A stretch of 64,000 nt of DNA from Candidatus Bathyarchaeota archaeon (GTDB lineage: Archaea; Thermoproteota; Bathyarchaeia; Bathyarchaeales; DTEX01), in contig CAVQNT010000006.1 of the NCBI GenBank assembly GCA_963714275.1, positions 160,001-224,000 of the forward strand. Reading direction: 5' to 3'. Positions 27,888 to 41,129 of this stretch are shown here, piece after piece; positions within the stretch are counted from its first letter, which is position 1, and each line of letters begins with the position of its first letter. The position numbers and the translations under genes were made by a program. Under the pieces are notes generated by a model. The model was not told the DNA's origin and did not search any database. It saw only the letters and a program-made list of their open reading frames with translations.

Positions 27888-29252
27888 CTAATGACCGTAA
27901 AAAGAATCGTAGGGCACGGATAAATCTACGTTTTGCGAAGTCTCAGATTTCTCTAAGCCATACCTTTCGAAAGGTTTTGTCAAATGTCTCTGCGAACGTG
28001 GAGACGAGATGAACAAGCCATGCTTTATGGGTCTTTCAGTTTCGAAAAGGGTCTTTTTAAGGTGTGAACCGTGAAATCCACATTTTGGGCATTCGAAGCC
28101 CTGTCCCTTGCCCATTGACTTCATTCTTTTTCCACAATTTGGACAAAGCGGGTTCATCACTTCCAGAAAAGGCGCAAGCTTGATAATTCGCAACTTTTCA
28201 ATATTGATAGTCACAGGATTCTTGGACGACTTTGGACGGATTCCGCCATAAAGTTCCACGAGGTCTCCCCGAATCAGCTTCATGGCTGCATTGCGGAGGA
28301 CGCCTGTCGGTTCATAAGCTGCGCAATCTACACTTCCAGTATTGTCTTTGATTCGAAAAATAACGTGACCGCCTTGAAGGATGCGGGGCTGTGTTGCTAC
28401 TTCGCCTTGGATTACCACGGGATTGTAGGGTCTAACGTCACTGATCGAGATGGCTCTTTTAAGATGTGCATCAGTTCCCTGGTTAGTTTTAAAGATGACC
28501 CACCGTTCAACAGGTTCGTAGCTAACCACAATTTCATGTCCACGTTTAACAGCCTCAGGCGTCTCTCCCCTTATGCCATAAAGGATAGGGTCAGGGCCTC
28601 TCGGAGTTATCAGAATTCGTCCAGTTTCAGGATCGACATTGTTGAATACTGAACATCCCAGCTGTTCATTTAAGAGTATGACGGATGATTCGTCAAATTT
28701 TCTCGGCGTTCCCCTGTTTTCTTTTATGCGATAGGATATGCACTCGAATGTGTGGTCTCCTCTAAGTCGGGCGCCTATAGCTGCCAGTCCACCGATTAGA
28801 CCTCTTCCCTTTTTGTATCCGCTTGCCTCAGCGTTAAATTTTTTGATGAGCCTTAAAGCTTCGTTCTTTGTAACGATGCCTGTTATTGTTTGTTCAGCGA
28901 AATTTTCGACATCTTTGGGCACCTCGCCTTCAAAGAACACGACTCCAGGATCAGTTCCTCGATCGCTAAGGTCGGATTCTTTCTCAACAGTATCAATGGC
29001 GAGCTCTTTGACTTTGTCGCGAAGTTGGTTGCCGCACAAAATTCTTAGGCAAAGGGCGCCGTTGCCTCTGGTTTTCCACGGTACATTCGGATTCAACCTT
29101 ACAAGAGACGGATAATCGGTGAAGGAGATTCCCAGTTTCATCAGCTTTTCGATGATGAGGGCTGCTACGTAAGTTGTGCATCCTCCTTTGCGGGAGTCGG
29201 TGTCGTCGAAGCCGACGTGCATTTTGAGTTTCGTCATAATCTCAGTTCGCAT
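27888..29252 (-). CDS. tiaS: tRNA(Ile2) 2-agmatinylcytidine synthetase
   Basis: GFDDTDS..GGCTT, RLNPNVPWKTRGNG, PILYGIRG, TNQGTD, CPNCG..CPKC, RHLTKP. Confidence 0.97.
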   Translation of the reverse strand: MRTEIMTKLKMHVGFDDTDSRKGGCTTYVAALIIEKLMKLGISFTDYPSLVRLNPNVPWKTRGNGALCLRILCGNQLRDKVKELAIDTVEKESDLSDRGTDPGVVFFEGEVPKDVENFAEQTITGIVTKNEALRLIKKFNAEASGYKKGRGLIGGLAAIGARLRGDHTFECISYRIKENRGTPRKFDESSVILLNEQLGCSVFNNVDPETGRILITPRGPDPILYGIRGETPEAVKRGHEIVVSYEPVERWVIFKTNQGTDAHLKRAISISDVRPYNPVVIQGEVATQPRILQGGHVIFRIKDNTGSVDCAAYEPTGVLRNAAMKLIRGDLVELYGGIRPKSSKNPVTINIEKLRIIKLAPFLEVMNPLCPNCGKRMKSMGKGQGFECPKCGFHGSHLKKTLFETERPIKHGLFISSPRSQRHLTKPFERYGLEKSETSQNVDLSVPYDSFYGH

Positions 29253-29387
29253 ACTTTCGCTGTTGCCTGTTTTACCGTAGAAGACTTACGGATGATAATA
29301 TTTATAACTAGTACGTTAACTTAGTAGTATTATAAATACTAGTGGTTCATTTATTAGTTATTACACAAAAACAACCCCAATACATGG

Positions 29388-30572
29388 GTGATTATCAAAA
29401 TGACATCTAAAAATGAAACAGAAAGCAATAGGCTTCAATACTTAGAGGAATTGAGTCCACAAACGAGACAAACGTACAAGACATCACTAAGAGTTTTCTT
29501 TAAACACATTTATGGTGAAGGAGTACTCGAGGACTTAGTACAAAAGTACTTCAGTGAGCAAAGGGATTATGGCAATGACTTAGGTTCATTTTTGGCAAGT
29601 GTGAATGGAAGACCACCAAAATCAGTTAACCTCTACTTGAGTACAGTGAAGACATTCTTCGTTGAAAATGACATTGAGTTACCAGAGAAATATTGGCGTA
29701 GAGTACGTGGAAGGGTTAAAGGAAATAAAGCCAGAACTAAACTTGGAATCCCAACAAATGAACAACTGAAAAAGATTGTCACTTATCTGAACATTGAAGG
29801 TAAGGCACTATTCCTAACTTTAGCGTCCAGTGGAATGAGAATTGGGGAGTGCCTAAAATTGCAACTCAGTGACATTCACCTTGATGAGAGTCCAGTACGT
29901 ATTGAATTGCGGGGGGAGACAACAAAGTCTGGTGATGGACGTACAACATTCATTTCAACTGAGGCAAAGGAACTCATGGTTGAATACCTTAAACATAGGG
30001 ACAGATTGCTAGCAACATCAATCAAACGTAGTGCAAGTGAGAAGTCAGCAGATGACCAAAGTTATTCCCAATGGATGATGGTGAAGCACGTTTTCTTTGG
30101 GGTTCAGCACTTGAGAAATCGGGCTTTAATGAGAAGGATGTGACCACAGGCTATTATGTGTTCCACACACATGTCTTGAGGAAATTCTTTAGGACAAGGA
30201 TGGGTAATGTTATCCCTGTTGATATTGTTGAAGAATTGTTGGGTCATGAAGGATACTTGACAAATGAGTACAGACACCACATCACTGAGGAGCTAGCAAG
30301 TTCTATGAGCAAGGAGAGATTGCCTTAATGGTCTTGGAGCTGCCGTTGAGCAAATACAAACAGAAGTGGACATCAAAGTGAACTAAAAAATTGAGGGTGT
30401 ACTAGACCTTCTAGAACAACAGTTAGAGAATGCTGAGTTAAGGAAACGGATTACCAGACTTGAAGAGGCAGTTGAACAGAACTTCTATAAAGCTGTTGAA
30501 TACGAGGAAGGTAAACGGATGAATATAATGGAAAATGGAATGGAAGCCACACATGAAGCAAGGAGGGAATGA
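29388..30572 (+). CDS. Tyrosine recombinase/integrase 1 with C-terminal coiled coil; indels
   Basis: SSGMRIGE, TTKSG, HVLRKFF, LLGH, EGYLTNEYR; coiled-coil tail continues in other frames to about 30572. Confidence 0.9.
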
Positions 30573-30573
30573 G

Positions 30574-31191
30574 ATGGTATGGGACAGTAGTTTAGGACAT
30601 AGAAGCGTAGTCAATGAGGTAACACGATTCTGTGGTTTCAATGAACTGGAAAACCTTTTAGTCTCAATTGAAAGTGATGTGAAACCATCATACATTAAGC
30701 CAACGAAACTGTTGGTATTGTGCTTATTCAAATCTGGCGGAAGAATCAATGAAGTATTGAGCCTAAATGCTAGGCAATTTGAAACAACAAATGATTTCCT
30801 ATTCATTCATAATATGCCTGTCCTTAAGAAGAGGTCAACAAGACAAATAGATGTCTTTCGTGATGTACCCATACTAATGACAGAGGAGTTAACGGATAAA
30901 TTACTAAGTCTTTTACCTAGTGATGGAAGGTTATTTGACTTTCAGTACAACAAAGCCTATAAACTGATTGCAAGTTTGGAAGTTCCACCAGATGAGACAC
31001 ATGGTGATGGTTTCCACATAGGTTTAGAGGCTGAGAGAGCAAGACAGTTGATAAGAGACCATGGATTTGATGCACTTCTATTAAAACAGTTCTTTAACAT
31101 GAGCCGAATCGACACACTCCTGACTTACGCCAACCCAACCTTTGAGGCTGTCAAAACAAAGATGTTAAGACAGACTAGTACAAAAATATAG
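30574..31191 (+). CDS. Tyrosine recombinase 2, catalytic domain only
   Basis: KSGGRINEVLSL, PVLKKR, LLTYA; an HxxR motif (WFPHRFR) reads in an alternate frame at about 31008-31028. Confidence 0.75.
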   Translation: MVWDSSLGHRSVVNEVTRFCGFNELENLLVSIESDVKPSYIKPTKLLVLCLFKSGGRINEVLSLNARQFETTNDFLFIHNMPVLKKRSTRQIDVFRDVPILMTEELTDKLLSLLPSDGRLFDFQYNKAYKLIASLEVPPDETHGDGFHIGLEAERARQLIRDHGFDALLLKQFFNMSRIDTLLTYANPTFEAVKTKMLRQTSTKI

Positions 31192-31507
31192 ATAGATATT
31201 CATTGTAACTTAATTTTCTTTTCTTCCCTAGTGTTATCAAGCCCTTTTGATAGACATGGTTTTTGAATGTCTTTCGCCACCTATTTCCCGTATCATAGAT
31301 TAACTTGGCAAACTCATCTCCCTCATATACATGGTCAGTTGTACTATCTTGATGAAAGAAGACGGCTCTAACACAATAATAACAGAGACCAGAAAAGAAT
31401 TCTTCCCAACCCATATCAAGGCTTAGTGCCATCATTTTAAGCCTTAAATATTTTGACAATGGTAGTCTCATGCTAATCTGTTTGAACCTTTTTACCTCTT
31501 CAATCAT
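31175..31507 (-). CDS. Ribbon-helix-helix-like DNA-binding protein
   Basis: KQISMRLPLSKYLRLKMMA...WEEFF strand-helix-helix pattern. Confidence 0.5.
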   Translation of the reverse strand: MIEEVKRFKQISMRLPLSKYLRLKMMALSLDMGWEEFFSGLCYYCVRAVFFHQDSTTDHVYEGDEFAKLIYDTGNRWRKTFKNHVYQKGLITLGKKRKLSYNEYLSIFLY

Positions 31508-31579
31508 ATTATGCCACCTAACAAGGTCAACATGTTAAATGACATATCATGCTTAAATAGATTGGATAAAAACACTAAG

Positions 31580-31852
31580 TCACTCTTTCACAATCTCGAA
31601 AAAACCTGCTTTTAAGAATAATTCAAAGATTTTACTAATGACTTCATCGTCAGAAATAGTTCGTGGCTCCTCACTATGCGTCCATGCATATTCTTCTGGT
31701 GTTAATTTTTGGCGTAATACTTCATCTCGTTCTTCTTCAGTCATAAGAATGTATAATCGTGTCTTTCGGTATACAGTTTCTTTCTTTGGCATGTTGATTA
31801 CCTCTAATTCATCGCTTGCGCTAACTAACCAGCTAACAATGTCTAGATGCAT
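31580..31852 (-). CDS. Small hypothetical protein (probable start MPKKE), RHH-like
   Basis: GAGGT SD before ATGCCA; KTRLYILMTEEERDEV. Confidence 0.45.
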   Translation of the reverse strand: MHLDIVSWLVSASDELEVINMPKKETVYRKTRLYILMTEEERDEVLRQKLTPEEYAWTHSEEPRTISDDEVISKIFELFLKAGFFEIVKE

Positions 31853-31864
31853 AAAACAATGCAG

Positions 31865-31890
31865 GAAACTAAGTTAAGAAACTAAGTTAT
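31865..31890. repeat. 13-bp tandem direct repeat GAAACTAAGTTA(A/T), operator/iteron-like
   Basis: gaaactaagttaa gaaactaagttat upstream of the RHH-like genes. Confidence 0.6.
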
Positions 31891-32144
31891 GAATTTTAAT
31901 AGTTCTTGAAAAAGAGACCATGTGGCGTCACAATGCTAATGATTCATTAATAAGATAGGTAAACCATAAAATGTAAAAATAAAGTACCAATCTATTTCTT
32001 ATTGGTTGATGTGTGAGAAGAATGGAAAAGAGGATGTTTTAGGTGTTTTTTGTCAAGACACAACCACTCTTATCACATTGCTTTTCTCCATCAACCATAA
32101 TTCCAAAAAGGCGGGAGTGAAGGATAATAATCCAATCACATCAT

Positions 32145-32344
32145 TTATGCTTCTCTGGAGGCTCTAGAAGCCGCGGCAACTCCAACCAGCAAGGCAATAA
32201 TGATAAGGACTGATGCCATTGTCGTGGCTGAACTTGTCAGGTCAGCAGAGACAACTGCCATGAAGCCCATCCCAGTATGATTATGATGACTGCTATTGCA
32301 ATCACGTAACCCAAGATGGGTCGGACTGTGTCCAATAATCCCAT
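32145..32344 (-). CDS. Hidden ~66 aa two-TM-helix protein, needs one +1 correction at a G run
   Basis: MGLLDTVRPILGYVIAIAVIIIILG|MGFMAVVSADLTSSATTMASVLIIIALLVGVAAASRASREA; GGTGGTG SD upstream. Confidence 0.55.
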
Positions 32345-32401
32345 TTTACATACACCACCATAAAGGCAGTTTCCTAGTACAATATTCTTGTCGGTTATAT
32401 T

Positions 32402-32635
32402 TTAAAGTGACATTGTACTAAATTTACCTTCTCTTCTCTTGGTTTGGTATCTTCTTATTGATGCCTTACCTTTATCAGTTTTGAAATATTTTTGTTGTGC
32501 CTTCTTCACTGTAACCTTTCTCTTCAGTTTACCCTTCTCTGATTGGGTGTATTTTCTCAATGATAACCTTCCTTTAAGGGACTTAAAGTATTTCCTTTGT
32601 GTCCTCTTCAATGCTTCACTTACCGTTCCCATCAC
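32402..32635 (-). CDS. Basic repeat protein (KYxxS/TxKGK x3), virus-type
   Basis: KYFKSLKGR, KYTQSEKGK, KYFKTDKGK; GGTGA SD. Confidence 0.6.
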   Translation of the reverse strand: MMGTVSEALKRTQRKYFKSLKGRLSLRKYTQSEKGKLKRKVTVKKAQQKYFKTDKGKASIRRYQTKRREGKFSTMSL

Positions 32636-32721
32636 CCCATAAATGACAAGGTAGTTTACATGTAACGACTCTATGAAATGATTCTCTTAACCAATGATAA
32701 AATCTGTTGAATAATGATTGA

Positions 32722-33351
32722 TTAGTCCCTTTTATCAAAATCTTTCATTGTATCATCATAGTTGTATGGAATATCTTGGCATAGAGCATTCAGTTGTTCC
32801 TCGACATGGTCTATCTGGAAAATTGATTCTAAAAGATGTACTTGGATAAATCCACAGTTCACATTCAACAAACAAAAGGCATCATACCACAAATTCTTCT
32901 CCATAACCCTCTGAGTATACTCTATCTTTGCTATCCTAACAGCCACATGGTGCCTAACTATACCCTTAACAATAGAGTTAATGACTAACTGTAAAACACC
33001 TTCATCCATGCTCAATATCTGGAAGCCAATGATAACTATGATGATATTACGTTCAAGGCAATCTCGTACTTGGTCTTTTGTCAAATTGTTCTTGAAAGAG
33101 ATGAACATGGCTTTGATAGTGGCTTCTGGATGAGCATCAAATTCATGGAGATATCTCATCCATCTATCTGGTTTGATGAAGCTCTTCATTGCAAAATCAT
33201 TTATTTGCCCAACAAGGATTTCATTACCTTTCACTGCATAAATGTCAGCACCAGATTGCCATGGTTGATGTGGAGGTAAAACCCAGCCCATCCTTCTAAG
33301 TGCTTCAGGAACCATACACTCACCAATTTGTGCAATGACATAAGAAGTCAA
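32722..33351 (-). CDS. PD-(D/E)XK nuclease-like protein
   Basis: IGECMVPEALRRMGW...GADIYAVKGNEILVGQIND; the (D/E)xK position is atypical. Confidence 0.5.
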   Translation of the reverse strand: MTSYVIAQIGECMVPEALRRMGWVLPPHQPWQSGADIYAVKGNEILVGQINDFAMKSFIKPDRWMRYLHEFDAHPEATIKAMFISFKNNLTKDQVRDCLERNIIIVIIGFQILSMDEGVLQLVINSIVKGIVRHHVAVRIAKIEYTQRVMEKNLWYDAFCLLNVNCGFIQVHLLESIFQIDHVEEQLNALCQDIPYNYDDTMKDFDKRD

Positions 33352-33668
33352 TACAACAATGGTTGATAATAGAGTGGAAAGAATGGTAAAGTGGCTGTTC
33401 CATAATGTTTCTTGGCATGGGATGAATTTTTTTCAAAAGTGGGAGTGATTCGATTTTTAGATAGGTTTTGAGCATTTATTGGCTCAACCAATCATTGTTT
33501 CCACACACACAGCAATTTATAGACTTAACTTCTATAATAACTTACCATGACCCTTTATTTATAATAGTATGGTAAATTTAGGCTTTATTCCTCATTTTAA
33601 GGTGTTTTTGAGCCTATTCCAAAAATTTTATAAAGTCCCAAAGACAACAATTACTTAGATGATTTAAC

Positions 33669-33797
33669 ATGACAATAAGAGCATACAAATTCACTGGGAT
33701 AGAGGTTCATCAAAGAGAGAATCCAAACGAGTATTTTCGGCAATACTATCACAAGGTTAAGAAACAAAGAATGGCACAAAAGAGTGGACAGAAATAG
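33669..33797 (+). CDS. 42 aa basic micro-protein
   Basis: MTIRAYKFTGIEVHQRENPNEYFRQYYHKVKKQRMAQKSGQK, downstream of a TTTATAAA box. Confidence 0.45.
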   Translation: MTIRAYKFTGIEVHQRENPNEYFRQYYHKVKKQRMAQKSGQK

Positions 33798-33919
33798 ATT
33801 GGGCAGAAAACCAGCGACAAAGAAACAACTGAAAAAGCTTCATCGCCACAAATCATTCTCCATAAAACGTGCATACAGGCAGTTCGAAGAATATAGATGA
33901 TTGCCCATAAAAATGTGGG

Positions 33920-34405
33920 ATGTCACTCAACTTGAAGGGTCACAATTGGGGAGGACTTTGTAAAAAATGTGGGAAATCCCATCTACATGGAAGGCTCAAT
34001 AAATCAAGTTGGAACAAAGGTTTAACGAATCTTACTGATGAAAGGGTTGCAGAGTCAAGTAGAAAAAGAGCATTGTGGAACAAACTAAATCCACATGGTA
34101 TATCTTTTGAACAAAGAAAGAAAATAAGTTGTTATGCTATCAAAAGGTTTCAAGACCCACTTTGGAGACAATGGTTCTTTGAAAGAATGAGAGAAACCAC
34201 ATGGGAAAACTCAGAACGTAACCTTAAAATTAGTAAAGTACAGTTCATGGTTTGGATTAATCGGAAACACCAAATAGAAAATAGATTGGGTTATGTCATT
34301 ACACATCTCACGTGGGCTCATCTTTATGGTAAAGCCAAAGCACAAGAAATGAAAGATGATGCCTCTGTTCGTGCAGTAATTTGGTGGCAAAAGAATCACA
34401 AATGA
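33920..34405 (+). CDS. Basic protein with CxxC and NUMOD3-like DNA-binding motifs
   Basis: CKKCGKSH; SWNKGLTNLTDERV; EQRKKIS; ERNLKIS. Confidence 0.55.
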   Translation: MSLNLKGHNWGGLCKKCGKSHLHGRLNKSSWNKGLTNLTDERVAESSRKRALWNKLNPHGISFEQRKKISCYAIKRFQDPLWRQWFFERMRETTWENSERNLKISKVQFMVWINRKHQIENRLGYVITHLTWAHLYGKAKAQEMKDDASVRAVIWWQKNHK

Positions 34406-34467
34406 AAGAGGACTTTGTAAATAGGACTAAAAACCGTTGGTTCAACAATTCAAAAGACTGATTATCA

Positions 34468-34689
34468 TTGCTATATGGGAGTAAGCTGGGTGAACTAGAT
34501 GCCAAACTAGTTGGAATAGTTGTATCTGATTTAGAGTTTGCTAGAAAGTGTCTTGTGGAGAAGACAGCCAAGTACAGTTATTATGAAAATACGGGACTTT
34601 TAGAACATTCCTATCTATATCCTAAGTACAATGGTGATAAACCCAAAATGGTTGAAATTCAGTTCCCAAATGAAGAGGAATATAGATGA
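34468..34689 (+). CDS. Hypothetical protein, 5' end probably frameshifted from ATG 34402
   Basis: Overlapping ATGA start/stop coupling with both neighbours. Confidence 0.4.
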   Translation: MLYGSKLGELDAKLVGIVVSDLEFARKCLVEKTAKYSYYENTGLLEHSYLYPKYNGDKPKMVEIQFPNEEEYR

Positions 34690-34886
34690 CAACACAAAGT
34701 GGTTCCTATCCAATGACCAACAATGTTTTGGCACGTTATCAGAATAAGGGAATTGTGCATCATTGTCCACGTTGTGGTAAGTCCTTCATTGTCCATGACA
34801 AGGTTCATGTTACCCGAAAAATGTGTATCATGAAGAATGTTATGAAGCAACAATCATTGATGTCCCAGATGAGGAAGAGGAAATAA
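34686..34886 (+). CDS. Small Zn-finger-like protein
   Basis: HCPRCGKSF; overlaps the upstream stop. Confidence 0.5.
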   Translation: MTTQSGSYPMTNNVLARYQNKGIVHHCPRCGKSFIVHDKVHVTRKMCIMKNVMKQQSLMSQMRKRK

Positions 34887-34890
34887 TGAC

Positions 34891-35046
34891 ATGAAGATTT
34901 GTAAGGTTTGTGGACGAGTTTATAATACTGTCCAAAAAGATACCTGTTGTGGAAGGCATGCTCGAACTCTAAAGACTAGAATAAAGAAAGAGAAAATCAA
35001 ACATGAGAAAGAACTAAGGCGCAAGTCTTTACTCATTGACCTTTGA
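34891..35046 (+). CDS. 51 aa Zn-finger micro-protein, not in ORF track
   Basis: MKICKVCGRVYNTVQKDTCCGRHARTLKTRIKKEKIKHEKELRRKSLLIDL. Confidence 0.55.
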   Translation: MKICKVCGRVYNTVQKDTCCGRHARTLKTRIKKEKIKHEKELRRKSLLIDL

Positions 35047-35500
35047 AGCTCCATACTTGTATTAATTGTTCATGATAGGTACTTTCTACACTAAAAACAC
35101 TACCCTAAACAGTGATAAATACCTCCTTATTACGTATATAACAACATGCAAATTGGCTTTTTTAGGTATGTTTTCAATGGTTTTTGGTCATCTGATACGT
35201 TGTTTTTTAGCGTATTTTGTACTAAGTCCTCTCTGCAACATAGATTGGATACATCTTTTTGGGACATTGAAACGTATCCATTCTATTCCCATAAGGCATG
35301 TCCTTTTTAAAAATTGTTTAAAACTCTGTCCTCCCCCAGATGTAGGTTAAGGAATCGATTTAAAAGGGGCATTTCTGGTATCAATGAACCCATTTTAGGG
35401 GTAATGGCTTGGAAAAATAAATATAAAAAAAAGTGTCCCATATATATAATATGGTATGTACCCTCCCCTACGTCTAGTGGTTTTTGGGCTCGTGATTCAT

Positions 35501-35532
35501 TATGTAAAGAGTATCTAATTATTCTTTACATA
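35501..35532. repeat. 13-6-13 inverted repeat (recombination-site-like)
   Basis: TATGTAAAGAGTA-TCTAAT-TATTCTTTACATA, 12/13 complementary. Confidence 0.6.
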
Positions 35533-35843
35533 TCCTCATCAAATCCCTTGATTTCCATGCCCCAAGACTTTGTTTGTTTTTGATGTGATGTCATTGGATT
35601 CCTAAATGATTATTTAGGGTTTGAAATAGATTCATTGAAACCAAGCATTTTCCAAGTGAAATTGAAGCGAAAAAAAATCTAAAAAAAGTCCACTGAATCA
35701 TTTGGAATTTGATGACTTTAGCACAGGCTTCAAAAGAGGCTCTAGGGCATGTAAAAATCACTGTTGAGCTTCGTCCAGTGCACTCAGAACTTCAGTACAG
35801 GCAAAAAGACAACTTCAGCACAGAACAAATGATTAAAATTTAA

Positions 35844-36115
35844 TCCCCAAACCCAAACCCAAACTACCTCACTCTACCTCATCTCTCTCTAGTAATAGGT
35901 ATAGAAACCAACAAACAAACAATCAATAAAAGAAACAGCTGCTTACTGCTTACTAGGTACTAGACATACTAGGTACTAGGCTTCTCGTGTCGTCAGTCAG
36001 AGACACGCACTCTCTCTCCCTTCACACATAATAAACCATAACTCACACACAAACTTGTGCGAGAGTAATATATACTAAATAAACAACACAATTAGACAGT
36101 CAGTCAGACACAGAT
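35844..36115. repeat. Strand-biased tract of short tandem repeats (origin-like)
   Basis: (CCCAAA)3, CTACCTCA x2, GCTTACT x2, TACTAGGTACTAG x2, CAGTCAG copies; no ORF. Confidence 0.55.
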
Positions 36116-36207
36116 AGTTACGCAGTGAACACATTTATCAGCTTTTCTTGCAGGTTAATATATCATTATGTGAAAACAGTATAATCGCTTTCCGACGCTG
36201 TTACTCG

Positions 36208-36882
36208 TCAACTTTGCTCTTCGGGCGGGGGTCTTCTAAAGTAATAACCCATTTTTTGTCTTAACAATTCTCTCGTTTCTTGTGATAATTGAAGTACTAT
36301 AGAGCTTAAGATGGTTTTATCCATGGGTTCAGCCTTTGCAATGTTTTGACAGTTAATTCTATTTATTGTCTTAAAACTAATCATTCTGTGTCGAGTAGTT
36401 ATTGTGAATTGTTCTTTAGTTTCTTCAAATTCGGCAATTGAGTTTTTGGGTCAATTATTTCTTTATACTTCAATTTTTTTCCGAGAGTGTATTCTGGAAA
36501 TAGCGGATTGCCTTCATATATAAAATAGGTTCTCTGCCCGAATTCTTTTTTGTTTAGGTAGTCAGCCTTCTCAGTATCTGTGAGTTTGTTCCATGTTTTT
36601 GGATGAGTAAAATTCTTGCTCATGCCTTCTTTATTCAAAGAAGTCAAATCATTTGAGAGAAAAGGATTATCGAAAAGTGCTGTATTGACTTCCTCCAAAG
36701 GTGTGAGAATTAGTGTCCTATTTCCAATATCACAGCAAGGGTCTAGTACAACTGAATACTGAGAATTTTCAATTTTAAACCTACACGGCTAAATGGTTTT
36801 TCAATATTTGGAACTATTGATTATAGCCTTTTACAACATCGCCAAATCTTAATCTGTTTTCAATTAAGGGACTGTAAAACAT
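36208..36882 (-). CDS. Third gene of the TIGR04255 operon, possibly PemK/MazF-like; split by indels
   Basis: MFYSPLIENRLRFGDVVKGY...SVVLDPCCDI...LILTPL...YFIYE...MISFKTINRI...LQLSQETRELLRQKMGYYFRRPP reconstructed across frames. Confidence 0.6.
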
Positions 36883-36891
36883 AATTGTAAC

Positions 36892-37119
36892 CTATTCTGA
36901 AGGAAGTTCGTTGATGTCCACAGAGGTTCCCTGCGTCTTTCTATCTTTCAGTGACCTGAAGTCTTCGTTGATTGCTACTTCCTCTATGCCGACAAATTTA
37001 CCATCCAAGGTTAACTTAACCAGAATAAGGTACTTGTCAAAATTACATAGCTTATGCGTGAATTGGCTTTCTGAATTTCCCCCTGTTACAGTTTTTGGTT
37101 TTCTGATTATTTCTGTCAT
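36892..37119 (-). CDS. 75 aa hypothetical protein, middle gene of the operon
   Basis: Intact ORF spaced 6 and 9 nt from its neighbours. Confidence 0.65.
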   Translation of the reverse strand: MTEIIRKPKTVTGGNSESQFTHKLCNFDKYLILVKLTLDGKFVGIEEVAINEDFRSLKDRKTQGTSVDINELPSE

Positions 37120-37125
37120 TTAATT

Positions 37126-37888
37126 TCACTTAAGCGTGCCAGTTCTCATATATTGCTTTACGGGTTCTTTTACGATGTTGAAATACTCATAATGAATTAT
37201 TTGATAAAGTTCGTCAGTAATCTGAAGATAGTCTTTGGAGGCTATATTAGTTTCGAAGCCATCAAAATCCAAAACTATAGCGTCTTTGCCCTGAGCATTT
37301 TTTATCTTTGTTTCTTGATAGATTAAGTCTATGGCTGCTCCTAGTACAATTTATAAACAAATATGAATCGGATACCTCGTTCATTGAGAATCTATCGGTT
37401 GGAAAAGATGAATTGTAAAGTCGTTTCAGAGTATCGTTATCACTGGTTGGTAATGGGCACTCATCAATATAACGTAAACCTATACGGCTTATTATGGGTA
37501 CATTAATAGTACTTAGGAAATTTCCGATAACGAACTCAATTGTATCTCTAAATTTTAGTTGTTCATTTGGGTTATTATAGGATTTATGCTTCTTTGAAAT
37601 AATACTAACGGAGTTAGTTTGTACCCTGATTTCGATTTCTTCTTTTGAAAAAAAAGTCCAAATTTTTGTTACGTCTGAAGGATTTAATTCTTCATCGAAG
37701 TCTTTCTTTCCAGCACGAAGTCGCTCACTTAGAAGCAAGTGCCGTCGCAAAACCAATTTAGAATCAGGGAATCTGGAGATTATTTTCTCCTGAAATTCTC
37801 CTATTTTTCCTTCTACTGAAAACAAATCTGGAAATTTAATCTCGAAAGCAACTTCTTTAATTGTTGGGTAAACGAAAATTTCGCTCAT
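37126..37888 (-). CDS. TIGR04255-family protein, indel near 37300
   Basis: PTIKEVAFEIKFP, RIGLRYID, and LDFDG in the shifted frame. Confidence 0.8.
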
Positions 37889-38019
37889 TTAAATCCCTCA
37901 GTGTTCCTCAATTTATTGTTTCGAAGGTAACATATAGTTTTTACGTATGAGGCACGTCGTGCTATAGGTGAATTAACCTTATTATGCTTTACATTATTTC
38001 TTCCTAATAAATCCAAGGC

Positions 38020-38236
38020 TTAAACATCTGCTTGTCTAGGAAACCACGAATCCCTTTCTCCTCTTAGACATTTCGCAAGTAAAATAGCCTCTTCATCAAT
38101 CAAAGTCTCAAGTGTTTGCCTTTTACCTACCTTTATTCTTGGAATATCAATAATTGTCTCAAAGAAACCATCCAAACTTTTCATGAGTTCTCTTGTTTTG
38201 GTTTCATTCAAGTATTCTCTCTTGCCCTTTCTTGTC
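38020..38236 (-). pseudogene. 3' remnant of a stand-alone (casposase-like) Cas1
   Basis: RKGKREYLNETKTRELM...IPRIKVGKRQTLETLIDEEAILLAKCLRGERDSWFPR recalled as the C-terminus of TACK solo Cas1 proteins; frame closed upstream. From memory, not searched. Confidence 0.55.
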
Positions 38237-38334
38237 TAGCTAGCTACTAAAGGTATTCCACATTCAACATCTATCGCATTTCAAGAAAGGGCTCTTTTGT
38301 TCTAATAGGAATGGTATAATGTTTTTATGTTCAA

Positions 38335-38586
38335 ATGCTCATTTACTATTTTATGGAGGCTATAAACGAAATAGTGCAATTATTCGTAAGCCATCCAGAA
38401 TCAATATTTATAATTATCATAGCTTGGTTTTTGATTATATTAATTTTGGATAAATTACTTAAAGTGCATATTACTCCTTGGTGGGGATTGTTCAGTCTTT
38501 TGTTGGCGGTAGGAGTTGGAGTCTTTTACATAATTTATTATAAACAAATTCTAGGTCTTAATTCATATGCTTTCTTAATCTTCTAA
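38335..38586 (+). CDS. Small two-TM membrane protein
   Basis: Two strongly hydrophobic segments. Confidence 0.55.
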   Translation: MLIYYFMEAINEIVQLFVSHPESIFIIIIAWFLIILILDKLLKVHITPWWGLFSLLLAVGVGVFYIIYYKQILGLNSYAFLIF

Positions 38587-38626
38587 CTAAGTGAGTGAAT
38601 GATAGGACTAATCATCTTATAGTATT

Positions 38627-38893
38627 TCATTCTCTTGTTGCCTCTTCAAGATTATTTCTTGTTGCCTCTTCAAAGTTCTTTTTCTGCTTTTCCTCTTGTC
38701 TCATCAGTTCCATTAATTTCACAAGATAAATATTCGGACTATTAGTTCGGTAGTAAGATATCTGATAGTCTGTAGAAAACCCTAATAATTGACAAAAAAT
38801 CAAGTGACTATTATAATTCCGTTGAGTTAACTTAACACATATATTTATTACTGCCCCTGATGATTTTTTTTCAGCCGGATGACGAGAAGGCAT
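38627..38893 (-). CDS. Hypothetical protein or fragment with a 24-nt-period repeat at its 3' end
   Basis: EEATRNNL-EEATRE. Confidence 0.3.
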   Translation of the reverse strand: MPSRHPAEKKSSGAVINICVKLTQRNYNSHLIFCQLLGFSTDYQISYYRTNSPNIYLVKLMELMRQEEKQKKNFEEATRNNLEEATRE

Positions 38894-39017
38894 TTGTTTG
38901 ACCTTAATGATAGTTCAGAGTTAAACGGACGGCTAAAACCCAAAGATGTGTCTCGGACCAGATGATCGTAAATTTTCTGGTATAGATAACTTCATTTCAA
39001 TGTTTCTAGTTTGTTTT

Positions 39018-39308
39018 CTATTTGGTCTTTCGCAGGATTGGTAACTCATAATTTTCGCCGATGAACCAACCGAAGATTGCTGTTAACGCTCCGAAAGCAA
39101 TCATGAGAAGCTGCGTAAAAATGTCAAAGGTGAACACCGCTGACGGACCTGCGATGAGAAATAAACCTAACACGTAAACTGAGGCTCCCAACACAGCTGA
39201 GACAGCCATACCCATGGTTCCATGAACTTTTTTTCCCAACACGAAACCTGTAAAAAACGTAAGCGGGATCACAAGCCAACCAAGGTCCATTTTTGTCCGT
39301 TGCTCCAA
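39018..39308 (-). CDS. Small three-TM membrane protein
   Basis: Hydrophobic helices, intact ORF. Confidence 0.65.
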   Translation of the reverse strand: MEQRTKMDLGWLVIPLTFFTGFVLGKKVHGTMGMAVSAVLGASVYVLGLFLIAGPSAVFTFDIFTQLLMIAFGALTAIFGWFIGENYELPILRKTK

Positions 39309-39536
39309 TCAATCTTTTTTGGGAAACTTAACCTAAAAAGGATTACGTTAAAGAGTTTATATGTTCGAAGAACAATTTCGCATTGAATTCAAACCCAAAG
39401 ATATATAATATAAAATTGGATTCACCCCATGGCAACAATCAGTATAAATTATTTTTTTAACCGATGAAAGCATGTCAAAAGAAGGGAGTTTTATAATTTT
39501 GTTTCTGAAATGGGATTCGCGCCACGTTCCCTCATG

Positions 39537-39818
39537 TTAAACAGCTTTTCCATCATCCTTGTATTCTTTGCCTACAATCATGGTGGAGGAGAAGGTGATA
39601 CCCGACATCATACGTATCTTGTCAATCATGAAGTCTAGCTGTTGTAAGTTTTCTACACGTATAACTGCAATGACATCGTAATCGCCATAAACAATGTTGA
39701 CCTCTGAAACGTATGAGTACTCGGTCAACGCATTGCACACTTCCCTTTCAGTGCCCGAATTAACCTTGCAAAGTATGTAAGCCTTGATATCCGCCAACAC
39801 ATTCACCTTTAGATCCAA
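39537..39818 (-). CDS. Lrp/AsnC ligand-binding (RAM) domain protein
   Basis: AYILC...VYGDYDVIA...STMIV. Confidence 0.88.
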   Translation of the reverse strand: MDLKVNVLADIKAYILCKVNSGTEREVCNALTEYSYVSEVNIVYGDYDVIAVIRVENLQQLDFMIDKIRMMSGITFSSTMIVGKEYKDDGKAV

Positions 39819-39970
39819 TCATTTTTTCTGTTCATTGCTTTAAATCCTTTAAGATTCAGCTACTCCGTTTATAGTCTAATCAGAGTCAATCACGGGTATT
39901 GAATCTCACATTTCTAAATCTAATGAATTGGAATTGTGGGTAAATCATTGGTGAACCTTGGTTTTACCAG

Positions 39971-40216
39971 TTATGGTGTGGTCATTATGTCTATGACTAT
40001 CATGGTTAAGGTTGACCTGACTTTGTTGAGTCTCCGTATGCGCCATGTCACGATGTCCTTAAGTTTATCCATTGAATCAGCCTTAACCTTGGCTATCAAA
40101 TCGTAGACTCCGTAAACGCTGTAGGCTTCCTCGACTCCTTCCACCTTTTTGAGTTCTGCAAGAACCTCGCTCTCAGAACCTATCTCAGCATTAATCAAGA
40201 CAAACGCAATCGGCAT
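39971..40216 (-). CDS. Lrp/AsnC ligand-binding (RAM) domain protein
   Basis: AFVLINAEIG...VYGVYDLIAKV...VRSTLTMIV. Confidence 0.92.
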   Translation of the reverse strand: MPIAFVLINAEIGSESEVLAELKKVEGVEEAYSVYGVYDLIAKVKADSMDKLKDIVTWRIRRLNKVRSTLTMIVIDIMTTP

Positions 40217-40408
40217 GTTCTGTTCCTCATTATTCTTGTTCTACAATTACATCATAATTGTTTTTGGTTATTAAATATTTACGCCTATCTCTGTCATTCT
40301 TTCCTTCATGTGCTCTCCTTTTCTCTGAAGATTGGTAATGTTTAATAAATGCCTATTAACGACGGATAAATTTATTTAGAAACAGAAGCCAATTACTAAC
40401 GGGAGACA

Positions 40409-41129
40409 TTGGTCTTGAATCCTCTTGAAAAGTTCAAGGTTGACGTTCGGAAAATTGAGGAACGGCGAGATGACTCTTGGATTGACATGAGTTTACGGGG
40501 GCTCAGGAAAGGCGAGGTTCGATTTTACCGCGTCAACGATCCTTTAACGGGTCAGTGGCTGTTCAAAGTTTGCAGAGACGAAGAGATGCAGCGGACAATC
40601 ATTAAAGCCATAAAATGCCCAGCTGGAGCAGGCTTTACCCAGCTGGAAGGTCGCACTATGCTTTTCCAGAAAAGTCTGACGGAAGGTTATTGCTACGATG
40701 TTGTGTCGTTTTCTTACTTGGACAATGAGAAAAGGCTTCGCCGAAAAGTCGCGGAAAACATCGACGAGATACCTGAGGTGCTCAAAAATAGTTTCAGAGT
40801 CGTGGATTACGAAGAAGCCACTGGGAAGAAGGCTGTGGGAAAAAGCTTGGTTACGCTTTGCGAAGAAAGCGACGAAAAGAAGATGATTCTGCTTTTCCTA
40901 ATGGAAAGGGCTTGGCCTTTGTCCACTATTCCTCCGGAAGTAGGCGCTAGGATGGTTGACCTTTTAGACATGATTAAGAACCTCGAAAGAGCAGACTGTC
41001 GAGGACATCTACCGGACAGCTGAAGAGCAATACGAACTGGCAAGAGAGGATATAGACAGTATGCTCAATGTTCTTGAAACTGTAGGCAGAATTCAAAGAT
41101 CAGAACAATACATAAAAACAAAGGGATGA
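40409..41129 (+). CDS. Hypothetical protein, C-terminal wHTH-like part in a shifted frame
   Basis: Long ORF; continues VEDIYRTAEEQY...LETVGRI after an indel near 40995. Confidence 0.6.

Follow-up and report, generated by a model that had tools for sequence, protein, structure and literature searches.

Cryptic integrated elements have been described in Thaumarchaeota as loci that are defined by an integrase, carry no signature genes and mostly measure less than 20 kb; in the parts of the survey that deal with them, intergenic targets account for 15 of the 68 elements and restriction-type cargo is common (PMC6563490). Casposons of families 1 to 4, as that source presents them, are transposons that combine Cas1 with a family B polymerase (PMC6563490). 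We analysed a 64,000-nucleotide (nt) stretch of contig CAVQNT010000006.1 from a Candidatus Bathyarchaeota archaeon (assembly GCA_963714275.1), hereafter the window, in which all coordinates are given. Comparison of its flanks with those of relatives delimits an island of 9,531 base pairs (bp), 29310-38840, between tiaS and Lrp genes, and we read this island, with a probability of roughly 0.7, as a cryptic integrated element that has since decayed. A first-pass annotation, made from the sequence alone, had placed here a previously undescribed virus-like element, offered as a provirus, a satellite, an integrative element or a reduced remnant of one of these.

Like the elements of the survey, the island is defined only by an integrase and flanking attachment (att) repeats and has no signature, replication or structural genes. 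Unlike them, as far as the survey's account of the class extends, it lies in a different archaeal class, it was inserted at what is probably the core promoter of a C/D box small RNA (sRNA) gene, and it carries a second, short recombinase, visible decay and the remnant of a Cas1 transposon. The best reading is that the island fits this class, as the survey sets it out, and is not a new kind of virus; "previously undescribed" was thus too strong as a statement of kind (PMC6563490). The main value of the result is one of annotation, in that the DNA is better labelled as accessory and decaying than as a new virus.

The open reading frame (ORF) list and the composition profile place a low-GC stretch with few long ORFs between tiaS and two Lrp/AsnC-type genes (39537-40216), where the first-pass annotation had also put it. 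The GC content of the island is 0.359 against 0.434 for the genome, within the lowest 1.1% of the 9.5-kb windows (1,279 in all), and ORFs of at least 120 amino acids (aa) cover 34% of it against a genome median of 76%, within the lowest 0.4% of 275 windows. TiaS was present in 27 of the 31 genomes searched, the window's own included, and the DNA 5' of tiaS was compared in eight relatives, gene order by tblastn and intergenic DNA by blastn. In five of the eight (G004, G005, G001, G006 and G008) the site is empty: membrane-protein and Lrp genes directly adjoin tiaS, in the order tiaS, sRNA gene, membrane-protein gene, Lrp gene. Such an empty site had been named beforehand as the thing to look for, and the opposite outcome, a syntenic core region, did not appear. 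In G010 and G012, neither the 96-aa membrane-protein gene nor the 81-aa Lrp gene was matched in the stretch examined beside tiaS.

The intergenic DNA of the relatives matches the window up to 29309 on the left and again from 38841 on the right, and the insert therefore spans the positions in between. In four relatives the left and right matches overlap by 12 nt of the relative's sequence, and a 12-bp direct repeat, identical at 11 of 12 positions, stands at the two borders of the island; the empty site reads ATATTTATTACT, as does the right-hand copy. The right border thus lies about 2.6 kb beyond the end at 36200 that had first been assigned, and the stretch of about 1.1 kb that had been taken for a non-coding end is internal and contains a Cas1-transposon end motif. 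The statement that there was no tRNA att site holds in so far as ARAGORN finds no tRNA in the window; an att site nevertheless exists, as the 12-bp repeat. The motif GTTAACTTA occurs three times in the window, and two of these copies are set 6-7 nt inward from the two cores and point the same way, a placement which suggests that they may be recombinase-binding sites.

Two other repeats were considered and set aside. A third core-like site at 38404, tried as the trace of a tandem integration, has one mismatch and no flank similarity and was treated as chance; at least three core matches arose in 3 of 100 shuffles. A perfect 17-nt inverted repeat (29529-29545 and 35215-35231), tried as an SSV-type att site within the integrase gene, was dropped because the true borders lie elsewhere. 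Near the right border, two tandem copies (88% identical) of a 24-nt unit occupy 38633-38680, within a doubtful minus-strand ORF that crosses attR. Also, in the right flank, a second small Lrp/AsnC-domain gene (39537-39818, minus strand) has a close counterpart (60% identical) in only one of the five empty-site relatives.

To the right of attR, a 60-nt sequence is about 85% conserved in five relatives though intergenic, and we read it as a C/D box sRNA gene, predicted from its layout, its conservation and the pairing of its guides. The layout runs from a GCCG stem through a C-like box, 12 nt, D'-like and C'-like boxes, another 12 nt and a D-like box to a CGGC stem, and the alignment columns that are invariant in the five relatives coincide with the two 12-nt guides. 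These guides can form 10 and 9 contiguous Watson-Crick pairs with the genome's own 23S rRNA, at sites whose starts are 25 nt apart; against 16S rRNA they gave no comparable match. The predicted gene resembles the archaeal C/D box sRNAs that guide 2'-O-methylation in its C/D'/C'/D box order, its 12-nt guides, its terminal stem, which is compatible with a kink-turn, and its dual targets close together in 23S rRNA. It differs from them in belonging to no Rfam family, a search across 28500-40500 returning nothing at E <= 1, and in its box D, which reads CGGA here and CUGA in only one relative. The distance from the att core to the 5' stem downstream of it, about 29 nt, is that expected of an archaeal TATA box, and from this position the core is probably the TATA box of the sRNA gene. 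A limited literature search found no report of C/D box sRNA genes as integration targets.

The closest relative, G002, whose TiaS is 88% identical, bears on the use of this site. Here too homology to the window stops exactly at 29309, and beyond the core a different element begins, the 380-aa integrase of which (PF00589, E 1.9e-17) ends 39 nt from the core and shares only 23% identity, over 102 residues, with the island's integrase family. At the other junction, on a separate contig, unrelated DNA meets ATATTTATTACT, which is followed by the sRNA. To judge from these junction sequences, the core is an integration hotspot, since two distantly related integrases have used it. A hotspot of 12-14 bp in the promoter core of a guide-RNA gene would add a non-tRNA type of RNA-gene target to those of archaeal elements. 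The G002 element spans two contigs (L013:2702-3894 and L068:1501-1512) and, like the island, is inserted at the 12-14-bp core found between tiaS and the sRNA gene.

The integrase of the island is recognised by PF00589 and a SAM-like domain in Pfam and by a PHROG integrase family, so that the integrase of the first-pass annotation is real, though its gene is broken; its best NCBIfam match, XerA, scores 60 bits, far below the 220-bit cut-off. Intact relatives are 411, 414 and 440 aa long, the first two being paralogues in the genome. Compared with them by tblastn, the window copy, known from a single assembly, changes frame near 30056 and again near 30295 and reaches a stop 28 codons later, and about 100 C-terminal residues are therefore missing. 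In archaeal integrases of the pNOB8 type (type II), as opposed to those of the SSV type, the gene stays whole on integration. Like these, the integrase gene of the island stands beside attL and was not split by integration; unlike them, its intact paralogues are about 410 aa long and end in a C-terminal tail that, to the eye, resembles a coiled coil, and its target is not a tRNA gene.

The second recombinase, rec2, also belongs to a genuine family, with 11 relatives of 155-216 aa, seven of which have a precomputed PF00589 match; what did not stand up is the window copy as a complete recombinase. Conserved in the family are GGR, VLKKR, WFPHRFRAERARQL and a C-terminal tyrosine. In the window copy GFHIGLEAERARQL stands in place of WFPHRFRAERARQL, with WFPHRFR encoded one frame off at 31008-31028, and two compensating single-base indels have therefore removed the HxxR motif, the frame being restored after 26 nt. 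Within the R...K...HxxR...Y series, PHRFRAER of the family thus corresponds to GFHIGLEAER in the window. PF00589 scores 20.5 bits over profile positions 6-86 for the window copy; the 90%-identical protein P0003 reaches 35.8 bits, over positions 6-170. Among PDB sequences rec2 had no match at E <= 1. Genes like rec2 were recovered (E <= 1e-5) from 30 of the 401 class genomes, roughly one match in three being full length, and adjoin GC breaks in two of these genomes. Around the rec2-like genes of eight class genomes, 25-31% identical at the seven loci matched by tblastn, no other gene was common with the island. As a family, these very short tyrosine recombinases with links to mobile elements are of modest interest.

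In the reading that we favour, the tyrosine integrase would have recombined an attP, with the core ATATTTAT flanked by GTTAACTTA motifs, with a chromosomal attB that overlaps the sRNA gene's probable TATA box, a short way upstream of tiaS. In this event the integrase gene, which begins 79 nt inside attL, would have come to stand at one end of the insert, and the sRNA promoter core would have been rebuilt at attR. Later decay would account for the frameshifts and tail loss of the integrase, the loss of HxxR from rec2, the truncation of a TIGR04255-family gene and the Cas1-transposon remnant. Since it has no replication, packaging or capsid gene, the element would now be a fixed genomic island, in which the genes possibly still working are a PD-(D/E)xK-like nuclease and small proteins of DNA-binding type. 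Of the identities first offered for this DNA, an integrative element or a reduced remnant of one is thus what the empty site in five relatives, the att repeats, the broken recombinases and the truncated genes bear out. The features of the island and its flanks are collected in Table 1.

Table 1. Features of the island and of its host flanks, with positions in the 64-kb window
Feature	Position	Strand	Basis
tiaS, host gene, left flank, outside the element	27888..29252	-	Pfam TiaS_FLD E 2.6e-37; adjoins the site in relatives
attL core, ATATTTATAACT	29298..29309		End of left-flank homology; 12-nt overlap with right-flank match
GTTAACTTA motif just inside attL; candidate recombinase-binding site	29315..29323	+	Motif search
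Tyrosine integrase pseudogene, two frameshifts, lacking a tail of about 100 aa	29388..30381	+	PF00589 on both pieces; tblastn
rec2, short tyrosine recombinase, catalytic HxxR lost	30535..31191	+	11 relatives; motif comparison
110-aa protein, possibly RHH-like (unproven)	31175..31507	-	37%-identical homologue on metagenome contig L041
90-aa orphan ORF	31580..31852	-	No family match below E 0.001
Two overlapping hydrophobic micro-ORFs, 41 and 35 aa	32145..32344	-	Read from sequence
77-aa basic protein with repeated K-Y-x-x-S/T-x-K-G-K-like units	32402..32635	-	Read from sequence; no family match
209-aa protein, predicted N-terminal PD-(D/E)xK restriction-endonuclease-like fold	32722..33351	-	AF2 model; structure alignment
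Six small ORFs (42, 38, 161, 73, 66 and 51 aa), several with CxxC	33669..35046	+	ORF list; overlaps
End motif of Cas1 transposon family, ATTAAAATTTAATCCCCAAACCCAAACCCAAAC, then C/A-rich stretch to about 36130	35832..35865	+	Repeat search
99-aa orphan ORF between end motif and cas1 remnant	36399..36698	-	No family match
Truncated TIGR04255-family gene	37262..37888	-	NCBIfam E 8.6e-15, positions 5-163 of 252 only
C-terminal cas1 remnant, residues 275-342 of a 344-aa Cas1	38029..38232	-	tblastn, 68 residues aligned at 65% identity
GTTAACTTA motif just inside attR	38826..38834	+	Motif search
attR core, ATATTTATTACT, same as empty site; probable TATA box of sRNA gene	38841..38852		Flank comparison
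C/D box sRNA gene (predicted), host flank, outside the element, unannotated	38874..38933	+	Layout, conservation, rRNA pairing
96-aa membrane-protein gene, host, right flank	39018..39308	-	Directly beside tiaS in five relatives

Several observations weigh against the reading of the island as a decayed element. The frameshifts rest on one assembly, in which an AT-rich and possibly strain-variable region could contain errors; all four located indels are 1-nt changes in very short runs; and rec2 keeps a full-length open frame despite its two indels, which is odd for a gene under no selection. The 12-bp repeat carries one mismatch and has a third near-copy at 38404, and the Cas1-transposon remnant may have come with the element or later. 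Furthermore, on a 9,399-bp contig elsewhere the nuclease-like gene has a 99%-identical copy, which differs from that of the window by indels at both ends, and rec2 an 80%-identical one, so that relatives of the element may still be in circulation.

One alternative is that the element is still mobile, the frameshifts being assembly or polishing errors or else bypassed, with a functional integrase and rec2 and with the element relying on host replication while integrated. That every located indel is a single base, that the rec2 frame is so soon restored, that near-identical and diverged relatives occur in other samples and that both the att repeats and the end motifs GTTAACTTA have survived well would all agree with it. 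Nevertheless we consider it unlikely. Coverage by ORFs of at least 120 aa is normal genome-wide (73%), and indel errors are therefore not pervasive in the assembly; at least five independent defects fall within 9.5 kb; and neither the missing integrase tail nor the cas1 stub could be produced by single-base errors.

A relative of the island is found on a metagenome contig of 9,762 bp, L041, which has an intact integrase (55% identical), a rec2 (42%) and the 110-aa gene, as well as HNH, NUDIX and CAP-domain genes and no replication gene. It is conceivable, though we hold it as a tentative proposal that is probably incorrect as it stands, that the island and L041 represent an undescribed family, within this archaeal class, of two-recombinase elements of about 10 kb, in which a tailed integrase of about 410 aa is paired with a tyrosine recombinase of about 190 aa that consists of the catalytic domain only, and which would insert in the TATA-box core of a C/D box sRNA gene and rebuild the promoter. 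The short recombinase of such elements might act as a resolvase, an invertase or a directionality partner and not as a second integrase. A profile search of genome contigs with the rec2 alignment found no locus, and one with the integrase alignment found a single locus, L067, with only the integrase in common.

Paralogous integrases also mark other islands. On contig 2 of G000 (242598-257000; L035), the intact 411-aa paralogue borders a low-GC island of about 15 kb with genes for a type IIG-like restriction-modification (RM) methylase, a split GmrSD, an Mrr-like nuclease and NERD-domain proteins. Two more integrase genes are split by frame changes, on contig 5 (111962-113162; L037) and on contig 7 (148067-149334; L031:6568-7834), and broken integrases are therefore common in the islands of this genome. 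The three other islands with paralogous integrases had nothing else in common with this one.

The nuclease-like gene of the first-pass annotation encodes the 209-aa protein, and the description holds at the level of fold only. Its AlphaFold2 (AF2) model, with pLDDT 63-90 over residues 11-135, is of moderate confidence, and by VIA-align it superimposes on 1y88 with Z 9.9 and a root-mean-square deviation of 3.3 over 111 aligned residues, and on Can2 nuclease domains with Z 9.2; Foldseek alone gave E >= 0.015. On this model the N-terminal domain is predicted to have the alpha/beta core fold of restriction endonucleases, an assignment supported at fold level. In an alignment of seven sequences E, D and Q/E-x-x-N are mostly conserved and K80 and Q111 are invariant, with no canonical ExK evident. 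The Atlas offered no more than leads, to clusters of Mrr_cat and PDDEXK; among 1.8 billion representatives there were only five distant relatives, plus the one 99%-identical copy; and PDB sequences gave no match at E <= 1.

On these grounds one might see in the island a small defence or accessory locus that has been kept, with dispensable recombinases and with the nuclease-like and TIGR04255 genes as the selected cargo. The predicted fold, which is nearest to Can2, McrC, LmuA and FokI-type nucleases, and the RM methylase, GmrSD, Mrr and NERD genes beside the integrase paralogue of contig 2 point that way. We judge this slightly less probable even than continued mobility, however: PADLOC matched none of the 21 proteins searched, the TIGR04255 gene is incomplete, no canonical (D/E)xK triad can be made out from the aligned sequences, and the island is absent from five relatives.

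No recognisable replication or packaging module was found. Pfam was run on 63 stop-to-stop frames of at least 50 aa in the island, and only three matched, all of them integrase or recombinase pieces, with no polymerase, primase, helicase, ATPase, capsid or packaging domain; no Walker A motif was found in the island either. On the absence of polymerase, primase, helicase and ATPase motifs, then, the initial reading of the sequence was sound. PHROGs, searched with 21 proteins, gave integrase families for three recombinase ORFs and two matches of unknown function (E 0.004-0.007), and beyond integrases PHROGs, NCBIfam and PADLOC together returned nothing except TIGR04255. Neither Pfam, NCBIfam nor PHROGs revealed a replication initiator, primase, helicase or polymerase. 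Scans of viral contigs gave no relative for the 209-, 208- and 161-aa proteins searched singly or for the rec2 alignment searched as a profile.

Thus no virus hallmark was recognised, though orphan ORFs could still hide capsid or packaging genes, and we find no support for a virus or satellite nature. Beside the rec2 homologue on another contig, L042 (13 kb), there is a gene of primase-polymerase/helicase type (Prim-Pol, DUF5906). The contig also encodes putative surface proteins of large size and a protein whose sequence shows a GTGKT-type P-loop motif, neither kind with a Pfam match; rec2 is the only gene that L042 has in common with the island. A new type of small provirus or virus satellite, with its capsid, packaging and replication functions in unrecognisable orphan ORFs or supplied by a helper, seems a very improbable identity for the island in spite of this neighbourhood and of the many small orphan ORFs, two hydrophobic micro-ORFs among them, since PHROG matches are confined to the integrase, four queries have no relative on viral contigs, there is no ATPase motif, the virus-like genes of L042 have no counterpart in the island and both recombinases are broken.

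Other genes in the left part of the island offer few family assignments. The RHH-like genes of the first-pass annotation are weakly supported: there is no Pfam RHH match (E <= 0.1) for the 110-aa or the 90-aa ORF, and the AF2 model of the 110-aa protein, with pLDDT 49, is uninformative. The hydrophobic micro-ORFs have no homologues elsewhere in the genome. The basic repeat protein is present as had been described, and the operon of micro-ORFs reported to contain zinc fingers corresponds to the run of six plus-strand ORFs, several of which have CxxC motifs. The likeness to NUMOD3 reported for that run is weak, resting on an Atlas lead at 0.83, and a search with its 161-aa ORF returned no relative except itself.

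In the right third of the island, the end motif consists of ATTAAAATTTAATCCCC followed by AAACCC repeats and recurs across the order at 89-100% identity; the 25-nt core of the motif has eight copies in the genome at up to 3 mismatches, and pairs of inverted copies, spaced 4.4-5.3 kb, enclose full cas1 genes. A tblastn search that used the complete Cas1 from contig 7 (PF01867, E 7.8e-46) located the cas1 remnant, and the match extends seven codons upstream of the start of a 63-aa ORF (38020-38211) that has about 25 look-alikes in the genome, which contains three long cas1 copies and many C-terminal stubs (about 25). On its sequence, this third is a truncated, polymerase-less Cas1 transposon, retaining one end motif, cargo and the last 68 or so cas1 codons, because the end motif faces the cas1 stub, 2.2 kb away, in the arrangement found in full units, with orphan ORFs and the TIGR04255 gene in between.

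As in casposons, the island combines an end-repeat motif with the tail of a cas1 gene, both of them belonging to units in which inverted repeats enclose a complete cas1 gene; unlike casposons, the two full units that were read had no recognised polymerase-sized ORF. With a single end motif, 68 cas1 codons and no polymerase, only a stub of the Cas1 transposon is left in the island, which is therefore a scar and not a casposon, another of the scars of polymerase-less Cas1 transposons that litter this genome. A crude scan of the genome for CRISPR arrays (at least four exact 14-mers 50-95 nt apart), which misses degenerate or short arrays, found none.

Directly inside the end motif, about 270 nt (35860-36130) are almost free of G and of T runs on the plus strand, being rich in C and A, and arms biased in this way on one strand adjoin other copies of the motif as well. 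A full unit lies on contig 7 of G000 (143206-147639; L031:1706-6139), and others, likewise within 4.4-5.3 kb, were found in G262 (L033) and G062 (L034). Units L031 and L033, in the ORF lists of which no polymerase-sized ORF was recognised, have inverted ATTAAAATTTAATCCCC(AAACCC)n ends, a full Cas1 and conserved proteins of 147-160 aa and about 155 aa, and L031 also has a MazE-like gene; on one unit, Pfam matched only Cas1 and the MazE-like domain. The 147-aa protein of these units has a DIDN motif and, judged by eye only, might be primase-like.

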